This document shows positions 6,368-21,070 of a stretch of 64,000 bases of DNA, piece after piece. Position numbers and translations under genes: made by a program. The notes beneath the pieces are model-generated. The model was not told where the DNA came from. It ran no database searches and saw only the letters and a program-made list of their open reading frames with translations. Numbering within the stretch: position 1 is the first letter of the stretch; each line of letters opens with the position of its first letter. Origin of the DNA: an uncultured Gammaproteobacteria bacterium (GTDB lineage: Bacteria > Patescibacteriota > Microgenomatia > Daviesbacterales > UBA10151); the NCBI GenBank assembly GCA_964394855.1, contig CAYMZD010000003.1, positions 22,607 through 86,606 of the forward strand. Reading direction: 5' to 3'.

Positions 6368-7444
6368 CTACCTCATGTCAATCCTAGCCCGGTGACTCTC
6401 TACAGAAGCAAGTAGCCCCAGGGAGATAAGAGTACTGATGAGCGAACTTCCGCCATAGGAAATTAAAGGTAGGGTAATCCCCGTGATTGGCAGAAGACCG
6501 ATATTCATACCAATATTAACCACAGTCTGAAACATTAACACAGCACTCACTCCAATTGCTATCAGATACCCCAAATAATTTTGAGCTTGCAGTGCCACTT
6601 TTAGGCTATAGAAAATTAGAAAAAGGTAAATAATTATTATGATAAGCGTGCCCAAAAAACCTAATTCTTCTGCCATAGAGGCAAAAATAAAATCAGTCCT
6701 ATATTCTGGTAAAAATTGTAATCTACTTTGGGTACCATAACCCAAACCTCGGCCTAAAAATTGTCCAGAACCAACTGCAATAATAGATTGAATAGCCGTA
6801 TAGCCGACCTGGAGAGGATCACTGCCTGGTGACAAAAAAGTATTTATTCTTTGCTTCTGATAATCGTGTAGCGAAAGCCATACCACAGGCAAGATAAAGA
6901 CAAATAGCAGTATTAGGGTGAGCATTTTTTTTAGTGATATGTTGGAAGCAAAAAGCATAAACGACCACAAAGCTACGATGGTAATAGTCGTGCCTAAATC
7001 TGGCTGTTTAAATATCAGAAAAACAATTGGTAAGGTAAGCAGGATGCTTTTTAAAATATTAATCCATGTAGGTCGATTAAACGCCCAAAAAAAACTTAAA
7101 ACAAGTATCAAAACTGGTTTGGCAAATTCTGAAGGTTGAATATTAAAAATTCCCAAAGGAATCCAGCGAATAGAGCCCCGAGATTCTATTCCCAAGATAA
7201 AAACCAGGATAAGTAATAAAATTATCACAAAATAGCTTGGTTTAATAAAATTAACCAGAGTTTGATAATCTATTTCGGAAATTAAAAAATACAAAAATAT
7301 ACCAACGATGGCAAAAATAAGTTGCTGCAAGCCTAAGTTAAAAGAGGTGGAAAAAATGACAGATACACTAAAGGTTAAAAGCAAAAATAAACTGATTGTA
7401 ATTGGCCAATTTATGAATTTAAGCACCATTTCAAATTTTAGCAA
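6368..7444 (-). CDS. rodA: SEDS-family peptidoglycan polymerase (RodA-like, outside the dcw cluster)
   Basis: About ten TM helices and a conserved C-terminal SEDS block GSGQFLGRGLGYGTQSRLQFLPEYRTDFIFASMAEELGFLG. The start may instead be MVLKF at 7429, which would avoid the 14-nt overlap with ileS. Confidence 0.7.
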   Translation of the reverse strand: MLKFEMVLKFINWPITISLFLLLTFSVSVIFSTSFNLGLQQLIFAIVGIFLYFLISEIDYQTLVNFIKPSYFVIILLLILVFILGIESRGSIRWIPLGIFNIQPSEFAKPVLILVLSFFWAFNRPTWINILKSILLTLPIVFLIFKQPDLGTTITIVALWSFMLFASNISLKKMLTLILLFVFILPVVWLSLHDYQKQRINTFLSPGSDPLQVGYTAIQSIIAVGSGQFLGRGLGYGTQSRLQFLPEYRTDFIFASMAEELGFLGTLIIIIIYLFLIFYSLKVALQAQNYLGYLIAIGVSAVLMFQTVVNIGMNIGLLPITGITLPLISYGGSSLISTLISLGLLASVESHRARIDMR

Positions 7445-14829: not shown

Positions 14830-15921
14830 TTATGTTTGTTTCGAGATGTTAAATAATATCCCAATTGCAGCCAAATTTACCACCAGAGCAGAACCACCAT
14901 AGGAGATAAATGGTAGGGGAACACCTGTCAAGGGTAAGAGGGAGGAGATAGCCCCCAGATTAACTATGGCCTGTATCCCCAGCCACAGAGTTAATCCCGA
15001 AGCTAAAATTTTACCAAATTGATCAGTGGTCTTGTCTGCTATTTTAAAACCTCTAATGACAAGAGCAATAAAAAGAGCAATTAAGAGCATAGAACCTAAA
15101 AATCCCAGCTCTTCTCCAATTACAGCAAAAATCGAATCAGTTGTGACTTCGGGAAGATAATATTTTTGTCTAGACTGTCCCAATCCCAGTCCAAAAAGTC
15201 CACCTGTACCAAGGGCAATTAAAATCTGTGAAATATGGTAGGAAAATCCTTGTGGATCTGAAAAAGGGTCTAAAAAAGCCAAGACTCTTTTTCTGCGATA
15301 TTCTGAAAAAATTACCAGTAATAAAAAAGCTGCCACAGCTACTGGCAAGCTTAAAACTATCCTCCATAGTGATCCTCCTGCAATAATATATAAGCCCAAT
15401 GAAGTAGCCACAAAGACAGCAGTCGAACCCAAATCTTTTTGCAAAAAGCCCATGATAAATCCGACTATTAAAATCAGTCCCAACAAAGGTTTAAGCCTGG
15501 CTCCTTTATCAAAAATAGCCGAAAGCCAAAGCACAGCTGATAATTTAAAAACCTCTGCTGGTTGAATAGTCAAAAAATTAAGATTCAACCATCTGTGAGC
15601 TCCTCCCGCTGATGTACCTATTCCCGGTATAAAAACCGCCAGAAGAAGCAGTACTGAACCTGCTAATGCCAAAAAAGAAATACTTCTTAATTTATGGTAA
15701 TCAAAATTGGCAAAAAAAATTGCCACCAACACCCCCAAAACCATCCAAATGAGCTGCCATCTAATGTAGTAAAAACTATCACCAAAATCCCGATAAGCTT
15801 GTATAACAGAAGCATCATAAACAGATACCAAACCAAAAATGACCAACATGGAAACTACGAGGATAAGCGGGATATCAAAAGTTCTCTTTTGTGGATTTAG
15901 GTACGTTTTATTGAGCCTCAT
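14830..15921 (-). CDS. ftsW: SEDS-family lipid II flippase/polymerase FtsW
   Basis: Polytopic with C-terminal SEDS motifs. Located between mraY and murG. The ATG at 15921-15919 makes an ATGA overlap with the mraY stop. The track's GTG at 16008 would overlap mraY by 91 nt. Confidence 0.8.
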   Translation of the reverse strand: MRLNKTYLNPQKRTFDIPLILVVSMLVIFGLVSVYDASVIQAYRDFGDSFYYIRWQLIWMVLGVLVAIFFANFDYHKLRSISFLALAGSVLLLLAVFIPGIGTSAGGAHRWLNLNFLTIQPAEVFKLSAVLWLSAIFDKGARLKPLLGLILIVGFIMGFLQKDLGSTAVFVATSLGLYIIAGGSLWRIVLSLPVAVAAFLLLVIFSEYRRKRVLAFLDPFSDPQGFSYHISQILIALGTGGLFGLGLGQSRQKYYLPEVTTDSIFAVIGEELGFLGSMLLIALFIALVIRGFKIADKTTDQFGKILASGLTLWLGIQAIVNLGAISSLLPLTGVPLPFISYGGSALVVNLAAIGILFNISKQT

Positions 15922-16949
15922 CGCGAAAGTAAAGCTAACCAGAGCCCAAAAATAGCAAACATTGCTCCAGCCAACCAAAATCTGGTTACTATTTTTGGTT
16001 CTTCCCACCCGATATATTTAAAATACATATGTATTGGGGCTACAGGGAAAGCTTTTCTCCTCAAAAATCTTTTGGAAATCATCTGGATGGCAGAACTTAA
16101 GACAATTATGACATAAACTCCACCAATAATTGTCAATGCTAAAACTTTACCTGTTAAAAGTCCCACCACGGCCAGTGTAGCCCCAAAGGCTAAAGCACCA
16201 GCGTCTCCCAAATAGATTCTGGCTGGCCACACATTAAAATAAAGATAAGCAAATAAAGCTCCAATCCAGATACCAATAAAACTAGCCAGTGTTAAATTAA
16301 GTGAAGTTGTCGCCAGAGCAAGTAGAGCAAATAGACAAATAACTAAAAGCCCAGTTGATAATCCATCTAAACCATCAGAGATATTATAGGCATTGGAGAA
16401 GGAGACAATGATAAATGCTGCTATCGGAATATACCAAACCCCAATAATAAAATTTCCCAAACCAGATATATAAATATTATTAAGTCCAATCATTCTATAA
16501 AGCATAAATGCCACCAAAAAAGCAAAAATTATCTGCAAGATTAGGATAAACCTTCCTTTTATCCCCGCATATTTTCCACTAAAAGCTGTAAAGATTTTTC
16601 TGATATCATCCATCAGTCCTATGATAGCAAATGAAATAAAAGTGAATAAGATAATAAATAAATAGTCCGGACCGTCTAAACTATTATAACTATAAAAAGA
16701 AGTATTGATGATAGTTAAAATAGTAATAAGTATTATTAGTAGTATTCCTCCTCCCACTGGAGTATCCACGTCTTTCCCAGCTAGCAGCTTATTATGAATA
16801 GGGGTGGTGCTGTCATCATAGCCTTTGGGAATTGGTTTTTTATACTTCCTTCTTAAAATAAAAAGCAAATTAATAAAAGGAACCATAAAAAAACTGGTCA
16901 CCAAAAAAGAAAGCAGAACCAGTCCTAAAAGTTGACTTAATGGATTCAT
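15918..16949 (-). CDS. mraY: Phospho-N-acetylmuramoyl-pentapeptide transferase MraY
   Basis: NAYNISDGLDGL (MraY DGxDGL motif), ten TM helices, and an ATGA overlap with the upstream gene. Confidence 0.9.
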   Translation of the reverse strand: MNPLSQLLGLVLLSFLVTSFFMVPFINLLFILRRKYKKPIPKGYDDSTTPIHNKLLAGKDVDTPVGGGILLIILITILTIINTSFYSYNSLDGPDYLFIILFTFISFAIIGLMDDIRKIFTAFSGKYAGIKGRFILILQIIFAFLVAFMLYRMIGLNNIYISGLGNFIIGVWYIPIAAFIIVSFSNAYNISDGLDGLSTGLLVICLFALLALATTSLNLTLASFIGIWIGALFAYLYFNVWPARIYLGDAGALAFGATLAVVGLLTGKVLALTIIGGVYVIIVLSSAIQMISKRFLRRKAFPVAPIHMYFKYIGWEEPKIVTRFWLAGAMFAIFGLWLALLSR

Positions 16950-18022
16950 ATTTTTTTAATAATTCGTTTGACAACCTCGTCTAATCTAACTGACTTTGCT
17001 CCTTTAACCAAACAAACATCTCCTTTTACCAACACCTTTAAAAGTTTAGACACCATTTGCGGATTTTGCAAATTAGCTTCCATCTTTTCTGTTAAAAAAC
17101 CTAGTCTTTTTAACTCATCAGCTATAATATTGGCTGCTCCTACTCCCAAAAAAACTAGATCTACTTTTTCTCTATATATTTTTTGAGCTATTTTTCTGTG
17201 TAAGATCTCTGTATCTATATTGTCATCTTTCATCTCTCCAAAACATAAAATCCGTCTTCTGACAGATAACTGCTGCAGCGTATCAATCGCACCTTCAACA
17301 GATAAATAGGTGCCCTCACCCAGATCATCCAAAACCACAGCACCATTAAATCCTGGTAAAACTTGCAGTTCATTTTCCTGTTGGGGAATTTTCTCCAGGT
17401 AATTCTTAATAGCAATCAGTGAAATTCCTTCGTTTAAAGCCAAGGCACTGGCTGCTAAAATTGAGTAAATATGATGTTCACCTAAAATAGGAAGTTTTAT
17501 TTTTACCCTCTCTACTCCATAATTAATTTCAAACGAGGAATTAAAATCCTCAATTTTTAGATTACTAAGCCAAACCTGGCAATTTTCACTATCCTGACCA
17601 AAATAAATAACTCTGGCTTTTGAGTTATCAGCTAATTTTCTCACTGCCAAATCATCATAATTTAAAATTACCAACCCATCATTTGATAATGTACTCGAAA
17701 TTCTATTTATTTCACTGATTATCTTCTTACCAGCTAAAGTCAAACTACTCACAATAATAACATTGGGAGTAATGTTCTCCCATGAATTATCCATATGGTC
17801 TTTCTTTTGATTTAAATCCAAGATTATTCTTCCCTTTTTAGGTCTTATAGCCCACAATTTAATTCCTGGTTTGGTAGTAATGACTGAATATTTTTTAGAC
17901 AGAATGTGCTGCAGCGTCAGTATGATAGTTTTGCTAAAATTACCGACCACACCAATAAAAACTTCTTGGGGAATAATTTTGATATATTGTTTGCCAATAA
18001 AAGATAAAAATGGAATTTCCAA
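16946..18022 (-). CDS. Mur ligase family protein, MurF-like by position, with no N-terminal domain and a degenerate P-loop
   Basis: Central-domain end ILGEHHIYSILAASALAL and the C-terminal domain (GEGTYLSVEGAIDTL ... LGVGAANIIADEL) look Mur-ligase-like. The ATP P-loop reads GVVGNFSKT instead of the usual GxTGTNGKTT. Confidence 0.5.
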   Translation of the reverse strand: MEIPFLSFIGKQYIKIIPQEVFIGVVGNFSKTIILTLQHILSKKYSVITTKPGIKLWAIRPKKGRIILDLNQKKDHMDNSWENITPNVIIVSSLTLAGKKIISEINRISSTLSNDGLVILNYDDLAVRKLADNSKARVIYFGQDSENCQVWLSNLKIEDFNSSFEINYGVERVKIKLPILGEHHIYSILAASALALNEGISLIAIKNYLEKIPQQENELQVLPGFNGAVVLDDLGEGTYLSVEGAIDTLQQLSVRRRILCFGEMKDDNIDTEILHRKIAQKIYREKVDLVFLGVGAANIIADELKRLGFLTEKMEANLQNPQMVSKLLKVLVKGDVCLVKGAKSVRLDEVVKRIIKKI

Positions 18023-18023
18023 A

Positions 18024-19283
18024 TTAAGCCTCTCTTTTTATATTAACACCCAATTTAGTAAGTTTTTCGACAACGTTTTCATAACCTCTTTCTATTAACT
18101 CTGCTTTGTGAATAGTGCTTTTTCCGGATGCCACCGCTGCCGCCAATACTAAAGCCATACCAGCCCTTATATCAGGACTTTCTAAATCGCGTCCTTTAAG
18201 TTTAGATGGACCATACACTAAAACTCGGTGGGGATCGGCAATAGTAATATCTGCCCCCATGGCAATTAACTTATCAACAAAAAACATTCTACTTTCATAT
18301 ATCCAGTCATGGCATAAAGTGATGCCTTTACTTTGAGTAGCCAAAACAATGGTAGGACTCATCATATCAGTGGGAAAACCAGGCCAAAGACCTGTTACAA
18401 TTTTCTTCGGGGAAGTGAGTTTTTGCCCAGAGAAAATAAATTTACCATCCTTAAATTCAGCCTTAAGGCCAAATCTCTTAAGAGGTTCTATAACAGGATC
18501 AGCATCTATCCCACTTGCGCCACTTACCACAACTTTTCCAGAAGTCATGGCTGCGGCAATAGCATAGACGCCCATTTCCAGATGATCCCCAGATAAGCAA
18601 AATTTCGTTCCAGACAGTTTTTTAACCCCCTCTATCATCAAGTTTGTTGTTCCCACCCCCGAAATATTTGCACCCATAGATATTAAAAGTCGGCACAAAT
18701 CAACAACATGCGGATCAGCAGCGCAGTTTCTGATATGGACTTTACCAGGATATAAAACAGAGGCTAAAATTAAATTTTCCGTACCAGTCACAGAAGTTAT
18801 GTTTTGGAAAATATGGCAAATTCTCTTTGACATGGATTTTTGGGGATAGCCAACAGTAAAATACAAATCGTCTTGAGTGATCTTTGCTCCAAGAGTAGCA
18901 AAACCATCAAGATGAACTTCAAAACTTCTTCTGCCAATGATATCTCCTCCGGGATAATGGAACTTGACCCTTCCAAGTCTTGACAGTAACGGCCCGACCA
19001 AAACAATTGAACCCCTTAGCTTTACTACCAAATCATCAGGCAGGCTTGATTTTAAATTGGCTGATTTTAAACTAACTGCTCCGTTTCTCCTTAAAACTTT
19101 TACCCCAATTTTTTCTAGAATTTGTAGCAAAATATCCGTGTCTTTAATCTCGGGGATATTTTCTAAAATAACCTCATCTTCTGTTAAAAGTGCTGCCGCC
19201 ATACAGGGAAAAATGGAATTTTTATTACCAGATATTGTTACTTTCCCCAGTAGGGAATTGCCACCTTCAATAATATATTTCAT
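18024..19283 (-). CDS. murA: UDP-N-acetylglucosamine 1-carboxyvinyltransferase MurA
   Basis: MKYIIEGGNSLLGKVTISGNKNSIFPCMAAAL is the canonical MurA N-terminus. Two-domain EPT fold, 419 aa. Confidence 0.9.
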   Translation of the reverse strand: MKYIIEGGNSLLGKVTISGNKNSIFPCMAAALLTEDEVILENIPEIKDTDILLQILEKIGVKVLRRNGAVSLKSANLKSSLPDDLVVKLRGSIVLVGPLLSRLGRVKFHYPGGDIIGRRSFEVHLDGFATLGAKITQDDLYFTVGYPQKSMSKRICHIFQNITSVTGTENLILASVLYPGKVHIRNCAADPHVVDLCRLLISMGANISGVGTTNLMIEGVKKLSGTKFCLSGDHLEMGVYAIAAAMTSGKVVVSGASGIDADPVIEPLKRFGLKAEFKDGKFIFSGQKLTSPKKIVTGLWPGFPTDMMSPTIVLATQSKGITLCHDWIYESRMFFVDKLIAMGADITIADPHRVLVYGPSKLKGRDLESPDIRAGMALVLAAAVASGKSTIHKAELIERGYENVVEKLTKLGVNIKREA

Positions 19284-19284
19284 G

Positions 19285-19863
19285 TTAAATTCTCGCCTTA
19301 AATCGAAATACAGCAGATAAAATCAAGTGCTTACTTAACTTAAGATCCTCGGGGGCGATCTGTTCAATTTCTCCATTTTCTAAGACTTTGATAGTTTTTA
19401 CTTTTGACTGAAGTAATTTATTTAAAAATAAATTCCCTCCAACCGTACCCGGAAGTCCCTTAATTTCATCAGTTTGTAAACCTTGCTTATTTAAAAATTC
19501 CCATAGCCTGTTAATACTTACTCCTGAATCAACCTCTATCAAAGCTTCATCAACTCCTAAAGATTTTTGAGCCACCTTACCTTTAATACCCACTATATTC
19601 ATGTGTTGAGTTCTGTTTTTAACCACCAGTCCATCAAAACCTTGATCAGCAATAACAATCTTACTGCCAGAACCTATCACCAAATAAGGAACAGTCAGTT
19701 GTTCTGCCATTTGGACAATTTTAGCAAGTTCATGAGTAGTAAAAGCCACGAAAAAAATTTTAGATGGACCACCCAAAGCTACTGTTGTATGGTTGGCCAG
19801 GGGTTCGTCCATTTTGAAACGATCCCTGCCAAATGAACTAATAAGTAAGTTTAGTTTATCCAT
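19285..19863 (-). CDS. murB: UDP-N-acetylenolpyruvoylglucosamine reductase MurB, short form: FAD-binding domain only, 192 aa
   Basis: LANHTTVALGGPSKIFFVAFT, GSGSKIVIADQGFDGLVV and GLPGTVGGNLFLN match the MurB FAD-binding half. The ORF ends 1 nt before the murA start, so the roughly 100-aa C-terminal substrate-binding part is absent. Confidence 0.6.
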   Translation of the reverse strand: MDKLNLLISSFGRDRFKMDEPLANHTTVALGGPSKIFFVAFTTHELAKIVQMAEQLTVPYLVIGSGSKIVIADQGFDGLVVKNRTQHMNIVGIKGKVAQKSLGVDEALIEVDSGVSINRLWEFLNKQGLQTDEIKGLPGTVGGNLFLNKLLQSKVKTIKVLENGEIEQIAPEDLKLSKHLILSAVFRFKARI

Positions 19864-21070
19864 TCTTCAACGCATCCTCACAAGCTTTTCTATCAGACCA
19901 AGGCAACTCTTTCTTGCCATCTAAATTAATAGACTTTTCATGACCTTTACCAAAAATTCCCACCGTATCACCCTTTTTAGCTAAAATATTAATGGCAAAA
20001 TCAATGGCTTTTTTTCTATCATCAATTATATAAAAATTCACCCCCTCTTTGGCTCCGGCTTTTTTTGCCCCTTTTTTAATTTGCTGGTTGATAGCTTTAA
20101 GTTCTCCTCTTGGATCAACAGCGGTCAGAATTACCATATCAGAAAGTTGCTGGGCTATTTTTCCCATCATCCACCGCTTTTTAATATCCCTCTGGCCTTC
20201 TGCCCCGGTAATGGTAATCAGCTTCCCTGATGGAGTTTGTGTTCGCAGGGCCATAAGAGCTTTTTCTAAACCATTAGGTGTGTGAGCGAAATCAATGATA
20301 ATCCTTAAACCATTATTATTTTTTACCCCTTCCATTCTACCTGTTAACCCTTTAAATTGCAGCAGGGATTTGACTACCCGTCTTTGATCAACCCCCAAAT
20401 AAGTAGTGGTTGCCAAAGCAGCTAGGGCATTTTCAATATTGTAATCTCCTGGTACTTGTAACTTAATCCTTAAATCTTGTTGATTAACATCACCTCTTTC
20501 TAACCCAAAGGTAATTATCTTAGCCAATAACTTACCCGATCGTTTAACATATTGGTTAAGGTTGCAATTGATAATGGCTACCCTTACACCCTTCAATAGT
20601 TTTAATTTAGTTTTGATGTAACTGGTTTTGGTCCGATGATAATCTAGGTGTTCATGAGTAATATTGGTAATCACTCCCACCTTAAATTTCACCCCCCAAA
20701 ACCTGAATTGATCCAAGCCGTGAGAGGTTACTTCCAAAATTAAATATTCATCTCCATGATCTAATGCTTGCTTGGTCAATTTCTGTACCACAAAAGGATC
20801 AGGAGAGGTCACATGAAAGCCTGTATCGTAGGATTTTCCAGCAATTTCCGCATTGATAGTTGAAACTAGAGAAACCTTTTTACCAGCATCCTTTAAAATC
20901 TGGTAAATCATATTAACTGTAGTAGTTTTACCATCTGTACCGGTCACCCCGATTACTGCTAAATCTTTTGACGGGAAGCCATAAAAAATATTGGCCAAAA
21001 AGGCCTTGGGCAAATGCCAAAAATAATTTATCATCCATTGAGATAAAAACCGCCTTAATAATTTTTTCAT
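19856..21070 (-). CDS. murE: Mur ligase, MurE-like (UDP-MurNAc-L-Ala-D-Glu:diamino acid ligase), lacking the N-terminal domain
   Basis: P-loop GVTGTDGKTTT sits only 37 aa from the N-terminus. C-terminal TAVDPRGE (DNPR-like, DAP-type specificity motif) and GKGHE are present. Confidence 0.65.
   Translation of the reverse strand: MKKLLRRFLSQWMINYFWHLPKAFLANIFYGFPSKDLAVIGVTGTDGKTTTVNMIYQILKDAGKKVSLVSTINAEIAGKSYDTGFHVTSPDPFVVQKLTKQALDHGDEYLILEVTSHGLDQFRFWGVKFKVGVITNITHEHLDYHRTKTSYIKTKLKLLKGVRVAIINCNLNQYVKRSGKLLAKIITFGLERGDVNQQDLRIKLQVPGDYNIENALAALATTTYLGVDQRRVVKSLLQFKGLTGRMEGVKNNNGLRIIIDFAHTPNGLEKALMALRTQTPSGKLITITGAEGQRDIKKRWMMGKIAQQLSDMVILTAVDPRGELKAINQQIKKGAKKAGAKEGVNFYIIDDRKKAIDFAINILAKKGDTVGIFGKGHEKSINLDGKKELPWSDRKACEDALKNG

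Follow-up and report, generated by a model that had tools for sequence, protein, structure and literature searches.

What does a murB gene that encodes only two of the three MurB domains do beside an intact murA gene? The question is raised by the 64,000-nucleotide (nt) stretch of contig CAYMZD010000003.1 analysed here (the window), in which an open reading frame (ORF) on the reverse strand at 19285..19863 starts with ATG and encodes 192 amino acids (aa) corresponding to MurB domains 1 and 2 only, the flavin adenine dinucleotide (FAD)-binding module of the p-cresol methylhydroxylase (PCMH) type. We call this gene murB-short. The MurA product, enolpyruvyl-UDP-N-acetylglucosamine (enolpyruvyl-UDP-GlcNAc), is the substrate that MurB reduces, and to our knowledge every characterised MurB is a three-domain enzyme whose chemistry depends on domain 3. 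We regard it as nearly certain that murB-short is a selectively maintained member of a domain-3-less MurB clade (~185-205 aa) from the Microgenomates group of the Candidate Phyla Radiation (CPR), with Candidatus Daviesbacteria as its core, and that this clade goes back to one ancient truncation of a CPR three-domain MurB and still occupies the native murB slot of the division and cell wall (dcw) operon. The clade is very probably previously undescribed; a full-text literature search on CPR, Patescibacteria, Microgenomates and Daviesbacteria found no account of a MurB that is short or truncated.

The murB-short reading frame and its junctions

Both ends of the gene were read directly from the DNA. 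The 5' end is ATGGATAA, in which the ATG at 19863 overlaps the stop codon of murE (19858-19856) by 8 nt (19856..19863, reverse strand), and the homologues, which share the N-terminal pattern 'MD.K.KLI.DSFG', confirm the start codon. On the coding strand the 3' end is AAG GCG AGA ATT TAA C ATG, with the TAA at 19287-19285, a single spacer base at 19284 and the ATG of murA at 19283-19281. This junction (19281..19299, reverse strand) includes a Shine-Dalgarno-like AAGGCGAG inside the end of murB-short, 8 nt upstream of the murA ATG, a layout that would be compatible with translational coupling. Because murA is full length and starts one base on, there is no hidden coding space for more murB downstream; in relatives the spacing between the two genes is ~0-100 nt, and none of these gaps holds extra coding sequence.

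A sequence-only reading of the window had stated that the gene ends one nucleotide before murA, leaving no room for a C-terminal domain, and that the flanking genes abut cleanly, and both statements are confirmed by the junctions described above. It had also proposed a check for indels. The murB-short ORF and both junctions are 100% identical and gap-free in three independent run-level assemblies (SRR12113420, SRR12113383 and SRR12113384), which at the assembly level rules out an indel as the cause of the short gene.

Domain content and predicted fold

Pfam models detect FAD_binding_4 (PF01565) alone in murB-short (residues 38-145, E 4.4e-11) and no PF02873. Six NCBIfam MurB equivalog models match the protein, only over their first ~115-170 positions and all far below cut-off, the best being NF010480 at 88 bits against a cut-off of 259, with TIGR00179 at 54 bits against 144.5. 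MurB structures in the PDB align to it only via their N-terminal ~175-195 residues, and even the shortest MurB among these matches, the 268-aa Thermus enzyme 2GQT, still has domain 3. The earlier description of the gene as encoding the FAD-binding half of MurB is borne out by all three comparisons.

An AlphaFold2 model built from a 114-sequence alignment (predicted local distance difference test score 90.3, predicted template modelling score 0.84) has MurB structures as its top Foldseek matches, with TM-scores of 0.78-0.81 when normalised to the query and ~0.52 when normalised to the target. The two-subdomain alpha+beta fold and the glycine-rich pyrophosphate-binding motifs of the PCMH/vanillyl-alcohol oxidase-type superfamily are both present. 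As modelled, murB-short is a complete two-lobed FAD-binding PCMH module, that is MurB domains 1 and 2, with nothing beyond; whether the 192 residues form such a fold was a point that the sequence-only reading had put forward for structure prediction.

We aligned murB-short with full-length CPR MurBs and with the MurB of S. aureus, which is identical to 1hsk_A over residues 2-307. The final beta-strand of domain 2, 'ILSAVFRFKA' (S. aureus 'VVLEAAFTLAP'), is followed in the short protein by only 4-6 further residues, so that domain 3 (PF02873, MurB_C) is missing entirely. Two internal deletions accompany this loss: the ~9 residues that follow the PGxxGG motif (NAGAYGGEV in S. aureus), and a second ~9 residues with the 'Y-R-x-S' motif, which in the CPR type is 'FGYDxS' (the 'FGY(D/R)xS' segment). 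S. aureus R188, S238 and E308 (1HSK numbering, native 176/226/296 plus 12) have no counterpart in murB-short, as the Y-R segment (Y-D in CPR) is deleted and the Ser (Cys in CPR) and the Glu lie in the missing domain. We take these three residues to be equivalent to E. coli R159, S229 and E325 and to constitute the MurB catalytic set; the catalytic Arg, Ser and Glu were reportedly defined by the structures of Benson et al. Compared with the canonical enzymes (type I of E. coli, type IIa of S. aureus, 1HSK, and type IIb of Thermus caldophilus, 2GQT), murB-short is without domain 3, the catalytic residues and the two ~9-residue segments.

Judging from this alignment, all residues known to bind or protonate enolpyruvyl-UDP-GlcNAc appear to be lost, and murB-short presumably cannot reduce the MurA product by the canonical mechanism. 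Of the features that would place it in the MurB family it has the N-terminal FAD module and descent from murB at the native dcw position, and it is without domain 3, the catalytic residues and scores above the model cut-offs.

Distribution, phylogeny and selection

A search over 5.8 billion proteins returned 243 homologues of murB-short. The best 120 of these 243, for which details were available, are all 188-214 aa long (mostly 193-196), 51-59% identical to murB-short, and contain PF01565 only; public annotation names the homologues 'UDP-N-acetylmuramate dehydrogenase' or 'FAD-binding protein'. Exhaustive HMMER comparison with 1.84 billion cluster representatives found ~40 distinct clusters (50% identity) of 185-205 aa, down to 29% identity, with full-length MurBs starting to appear at 36-39% identity and aligned over residues ~5-155 only. 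Among GTDB species representatives 44 genomes have a short murB, and nearly all of those with meaningful names are Candidatus Daviesbacteria (Microgenomates group), including one complete chromosome, CP066688.1 (820,589 bp).

Two side observations concern these records. Many of the GTDB representatives are titled 'uncultured Gammaproteobacteria bacterium isolate binchicken_...' (L008, L010, L011 and ~20 further loci) and carry a Daviesbacteria-type dcw cluster with a short murB; the organism names in these records look wrong. The 429-aa protein P0158 consists of ~125 residues of short-type MurB followed by ~300 unrelated, low-complexity-rich residues and could be a chimera, the result of a frameshift or a real fusion.

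The closest full-length relatives, at the 36-39% identity given above, are CPR-type MurBs such as P0146 (313 aa), P0150 (328 aa) and P0142 (328 aa). They share with murB-short a 'GLVIKN(R/K)T...KG' hairpin insertion and the slot directly upstream of murA, and differ from it in retaining 'FxFGYDxS', the loop after the GG motif and a complete MurB_C domain with 'PS(S/A)GCIFKN' and the C-terminal Glu. A neighbour-joining tree placed 39 of the 43 short representatives in one pure clade in 40/40 bootstrap replicates, and residues 1-146 alone, which lie upstream of the deletions, gave the same clade, nested among full-length CPR MurBs. Since the short forms are monophyletic and nested in this way, we conclude that a single ancient truncation was inherited through a long radiation.

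Selection on the gene was measured as the ratio of nonsynonymous to synonymous substitution rates (dN/dS). For the least saturated orthologue pairs this is 0.08-0.17 for murB-short, compared with 0.07-0.24 for murA and 0.12-0.16 for murE, and murB-short is under purifying selection. The short length, taken by itself, would fit an artefact or a dying pseudogene in which a frameshift or a recent truncation hid or removed the rest of a normal murB, and the sequence-only reading had listed both a hidden frameshift and a decaying remnant among its options. Neither survives the comparison: the DNA is the same in the independent assemblies, the six-frame search of the window gives no MurB_C signal in any frame, the full-length murA follows one base past the stop, homologues across 44 species are similarly short, and the short forms constitute a deep-branching monophyletic group whose dN/dS values are like those of murA and murE. 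We give artefact or decay next to no chance and consider it refuted; the ORF is genuine.

The active-site motifs of the full-length CPR MurBs are of interest in their own right. In P0146, P0150, P0142, P0152 and others, including those of loci L005-L007, the catalytic Ser is replaced by Cys ('PSSGCIFKN' compared with S. aureus 'PSCGSVFQ') and 'FGYDxS' takes the place of 'YRxS'. More degenerate motifs occur in P0153 (GSGSK with 'SSYRAFSD'), P0163, P0166 and P0180, the latter two with 'GYTYRN'. These alignments suggest that the active site of canonical MurB varies to an unusual degree within CPR.

Search for the missing C-terminal domain

The third option of the sequence-only reading was a split or novel reductase partner. 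The missing half might be encoded elsewhere, as a true split gene in which a MurB_C domain made from a separate, unlinked ORF reassembles with the 192-aa protein. We built a MurB_C hidden Markov model (HMM) from the C-terminal 135 aa of 65 full-length MurBs and in addition ran tblastn on the window. Neither the HMM (best E 0.47) nor tblastn found a MurB C-terminal domain in the six-frame translation of the 64-kb window, and the HMM found none in 51 short-murB loci comprising 933 kb (+-10 kb each), while three positive-control loci with full-length murB (L005-L007) scored E 1e-44 to 1e-57. The earlier suggestion to search the genome for a MurB C-terminal domain was thereby carried out on the window and on 51 related loci, with no match. 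Nor did Pfam scans of 34 ORFs of the window turn up murC, murD, ddl or an oxidoreductase that could be a partner, and the part of the window from 24 to 64 kb is mostly glycosyltransferase and polysaccharide genes.

The coverage of these searches, the window and +-10 kb around relatives, leaves room for an unlinked gene, and the protein database does hold many proteins with PF02873 only: a C-terminal-domain profile had at least 120 such proteins among the matches listed, many of them 95-207 aa long. Those that we inspected are broken calls of full-length genes. The 175-aa 'MNSKWT' MurB_C-only proteins of Roizmanbacteria were rejected as split partners, as they derive from full-length genes broken by a GGGG-run frameshift (L055, 340-400) or an N-run (L057, 3740-3800). 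P0282 was rejected as a stand-alone MurB_C protein, its gene being broken by a scaffold gap or N-run (L056, 1396-2238), and so were five further PF02873-only proteins whose cluster mates at 90% identity are full-length proteins of 312-324 aa. Breaks in such apparently split murB genes of Roizmanbacteria and other CPR fall just before the PGTxGGA motif, after which gene callers pick up again at the Met within 'Y/C-M-N-S-K-W'. Caution is called for with any database entry that carries PF02873 alone.

We also examined 80 metagenome loci, in which 75 of 81 MurB_C segments are joined to the FAD domain in the same ORF; five of the others are cut by contig ends and one is unresolvable. Among the proteins and metagenome loci inspected there is no evidence for a stand-alone MurB_C family. 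The internal deletions also speak against a split, which in its simple form would leave the 'FGYDxS' segment and the post-GG loop on one of the two pieces, and both are lost. We therefore consider a true split gene unlikely.

Operon context and neighbouring mur genes

The gene directly downstream, murA (18024..19283, reverse strand), is full length at 419 aa and scores 425.5 bits against TIGR01072 (cut-off 392.7); residues 2-417 of its product align to residues 3-415 of E. coli MurA (1uae_A). An Asp occupies the position equivalent to Cys115, which fosfomycin alkylates ('PGGDIIG' compared with 'PGGCAIG'). Natural Asp variants of MurA, for example those of mycobacteria and chlamydiae, are insensitive to fosfomycin. 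Genes for mraY, murG, ftsW and a penicillin-binding protein (PBP) are present as well. Because murA is intact and these membrane steps are encoded, a reductase activity is still required.

Upstream lies murE (19856..21070, reverse strand; TIGR01085, 351.7 bits), which encodes 404 aa without the N-terminal domain 1, residues 22-402 aligning to residues 88-480 of T. maritima MurE (4bub_A). Downstream of murA is a murF-like ligase gene (16946..18022, reverse strand), whose best NCBIfam match is murF at 115 bits against a cut-off of 288. Its 358-aa product also lacks domain 1, aligns over residues 11-353 to residues 92-451 of S. pneumoniae MurF (3zm5_A) and carries an atypical P-loop, GVVGNFSKT. 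Neither ligase gene has space upstream for the missing domain 1, so that three enzymes of one operon (MurB, MurE and the MurF-like ligase) are each without one domain. In canonical Mur enzymes the domain that is absent here from each of the three binds the UDP-sugar substrate. A MurE without domain 1 (411-417 aa, no PF01225) also accompanies full-length MurB in the CPR loci L006 and L007, which indicates that the MurE domain was lost before MurB was truncated.

The order murE-murBshort-murA-murF-mraY occurs in 42 of the 44 genomes with a short murB, and each short murB examined has murE directly upstream. A full-length murB (313-328 aa, PF01565 and PF02873) lies directly upstream of murA in other CPR lineages and is preceded by murC (L005-L007); the short gene, which has the same operon slot, is on this ground the positional orthologue of murB. 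At all loci with the short form murC is absent from the cluster. MurC-MurB fusions of the CPR type (P0174, 767 aa) are evidence that in CPR the architecture of MurB is plastic and the linkage of murC with murB tight; they gain domains, whereas the short murB has lost one and has no murC in its cluster.

Other features of the window lie further from murB-short. Two proteins of the SEDS family (FTSW_RODA_SPOVE) are encoded within 10 kb, at 6368-7444 and 14830-16008 on the reverse strand; one of the two is in the dcw cluster at the position of FtsW, the other is downstream of the isoleucyl-tRNA synthetase gene. A large cell-envelope glycan cluster at ~29000-60000 contains a Bac_transf priming transferase, many glycosyltransferases of families GT1, GT2 and GT4, a Wzy-like polymerase, a Polysacc_synt flippase, a hexapeptide acyltransferase and five PMT_2/PMT-type (dolichyl-phosphate-mannose-like) membrane glycosyltransferases.

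Conserved residues and the possible role of the short protein

We regard the identity of murB-short as established: a domain-3-less orthologue of CPR MurB, conserved and under selection. Its mode of action we infer from what selection has preserved and from its neighbours. Across the 114 aligned sequences no variation occurs at G64, G66, G139, G142 and G143 of the two flavin motifs, and conservation of S67, K68 and N144 reaches at least 90%. The family thus keeps the glycine motifs GxGSK and PG[ST][IV]GGN, with two shifts relative to the full-length CPR relatives, GGGSN to GxGSK (N to K) and GGA to GGN (A to N). Conserved residues that are specific to the short family lie in the CPR-specific hairpin (K94-G95-K96, G101, G103, E106-A107 and E110), and L151-Q152, H179 and S183 are conserved near the C-terminus. 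The hairpin residues and KNR[ST] also remain largely in place across 39 divergent short clusters.

Our preferred reading, held tentatively and at somewhat less than an even chance, is that murB-short acts as a flavin module in concert with a trans partner. It would remain a flavoprotein and accept hydride from NAD(P)H, and it would reduce the MurA product only together with a partner that holds the UDP-sugar over the exposed face of the flavin. Candidate partners are the apparently translationally coupled operon neighbours, namely MurA in most Daviesbacteria and MurE and MurF in all lineages, or some protein other than MurB_C.

Stand-alone FAD subunits of the PCMH type do exist in multi-subunit enzymes, for example CutM/CoxM of CO dehydrogenase, QorM of quinoline oxidoreductase, XdhB, and GlcE of glycolate oxidase. 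They are related to murB-short only at the superfamily level, and their genes adjoin those of Fe-S and molybdenum cofactor or GlcD/F partners, whereas the neighbours of murB-short are Mur and Fts genes only. The Pfam scan of the 34 window ORFs found no Fe-S, molybdopterin or GlcD/GlcF partner domains.

Several observations weigh against a flavin module acting with a partner. Roughly one in five of the 39 divergent short clusters has eroded GxG[ST] or GG motifs (e.g. GQGKG, GLEGQ, IGER, IAES), which an obligatory redox role across the whole clade would not readily explain, and the N to K and A to N changes could mean altered ligand binding. Nothing within the +-10 kb neighbourhoods is specific to short-murB loci, and no partner candidate is singled out there. 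MurA is not enlarged in short-murB genomes (419-420 aa compared with 438-447 aa in full-length lineages), nor does it always accompany the short gene: it is not found between murBshort and murF in the Daviesbacteria-type genomes L037 (CP066688.1, 30202-50777) and L048 or in the divergent lineages L052-L054. In the first two murA must lie elsewhere in the genome, perhaps beside another gene of interest; in the divergent short lineages the murF-like ligase is immediately downstream of the short murB. The invariant neighbours of the short gene are murE and the murF-like ligase.

The main rival is a pseudoenzyme, which we rate as a serious if rather doubtful possibility. Here murB-short would be a subunit derived from MurB that has a structural or regulatory rather than a catalytic function, perhaps as a scaffold or regulator of the Mur ligases or of MurA, and the reductase would be encoded elsewhere, as a second murB, possibly horizontally acquired, or as a non-homologous enzyme. 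The loss of all catalytic and substrate-binding elements and the motif erosion just described fit such a role, as does the fact that murE and murF, not murA, are the constant neighbours. The best-conserved residues clade-wide (K94-G95-K96, G101/G103, E106-A107 and E110) are moreover family-specific and outside the flavin motifs, and with some full-length CPR relatives already degenerate in the active site, inactivation may have preceded truncation. A pseudoenzyme is harder to square with the invariant flavin-motif glycines of the 114-member Daviesbacteria-type family. In the loci examined no second murB was seen, and the most similar full-length MurBs are the positional orthologues of other lineages beside their own murA. 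Redundant paralogues would also be unusual in genomes as small as the 820,589-bp chromosome, which is an expectation only.

A self-sufficient minimal reductase, in which K68, K94/K96, E106, E110, N144, Q152, H179 and S183 form a rebuilt substrate site, would account for invariant or near-invariant residues that are absent from full-length relatives, for the strong purifying selection and for the fact that no partner was found. Such an enzyme has no known precedent, as characterised MurBs all use domain 3, down to the Thermus enzyme of 268 aa (2gqt), and conservation of H179 and Q152 does not extend to the divergent short clusters. We think a minimal reductase quite improbable.

The parallel domain losses allow a bolder form of the partner reading, to which we attach only a small probability. 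The Mur pathway in these CPR might be a physically coupled assembly whose enzymes have shed their own UDP-sugar-binding domains (domain 3 of MurB, domain 1 of MurE and MurF), with the 192-aa protein as the flavin core that reduces a substrate held by a neighbour, or as a shared nucleotide-binding subunit. If this were true, there would be a MurB mechanism that uses neither domain 3 nor the Arg/Ser/Glu triad.

Significance

MurB is an antibiotic target, and here a deeply diverged branch of the CPR keeps a murB orthologue without domain 3 under purifying selection, together with murA and the cell-wall machinery. There may be a second murB elsewhere in the genome, which would be an ordinary resolution. 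Three outcomes can be envisaged: these bacteria may carry out the reductase step by means of a novel two-component or minimal system, they may have turned the MurB fold to a non-catalytic use and leave the reduction to another enzyme, or they may make or acquire their muramic acid differently. The finding matters for metabolic reconstructions that score the presence or absence of murB from such genes, and it bears on how far an essential pathway can shrink in ultra-small symbiotic bacteria.

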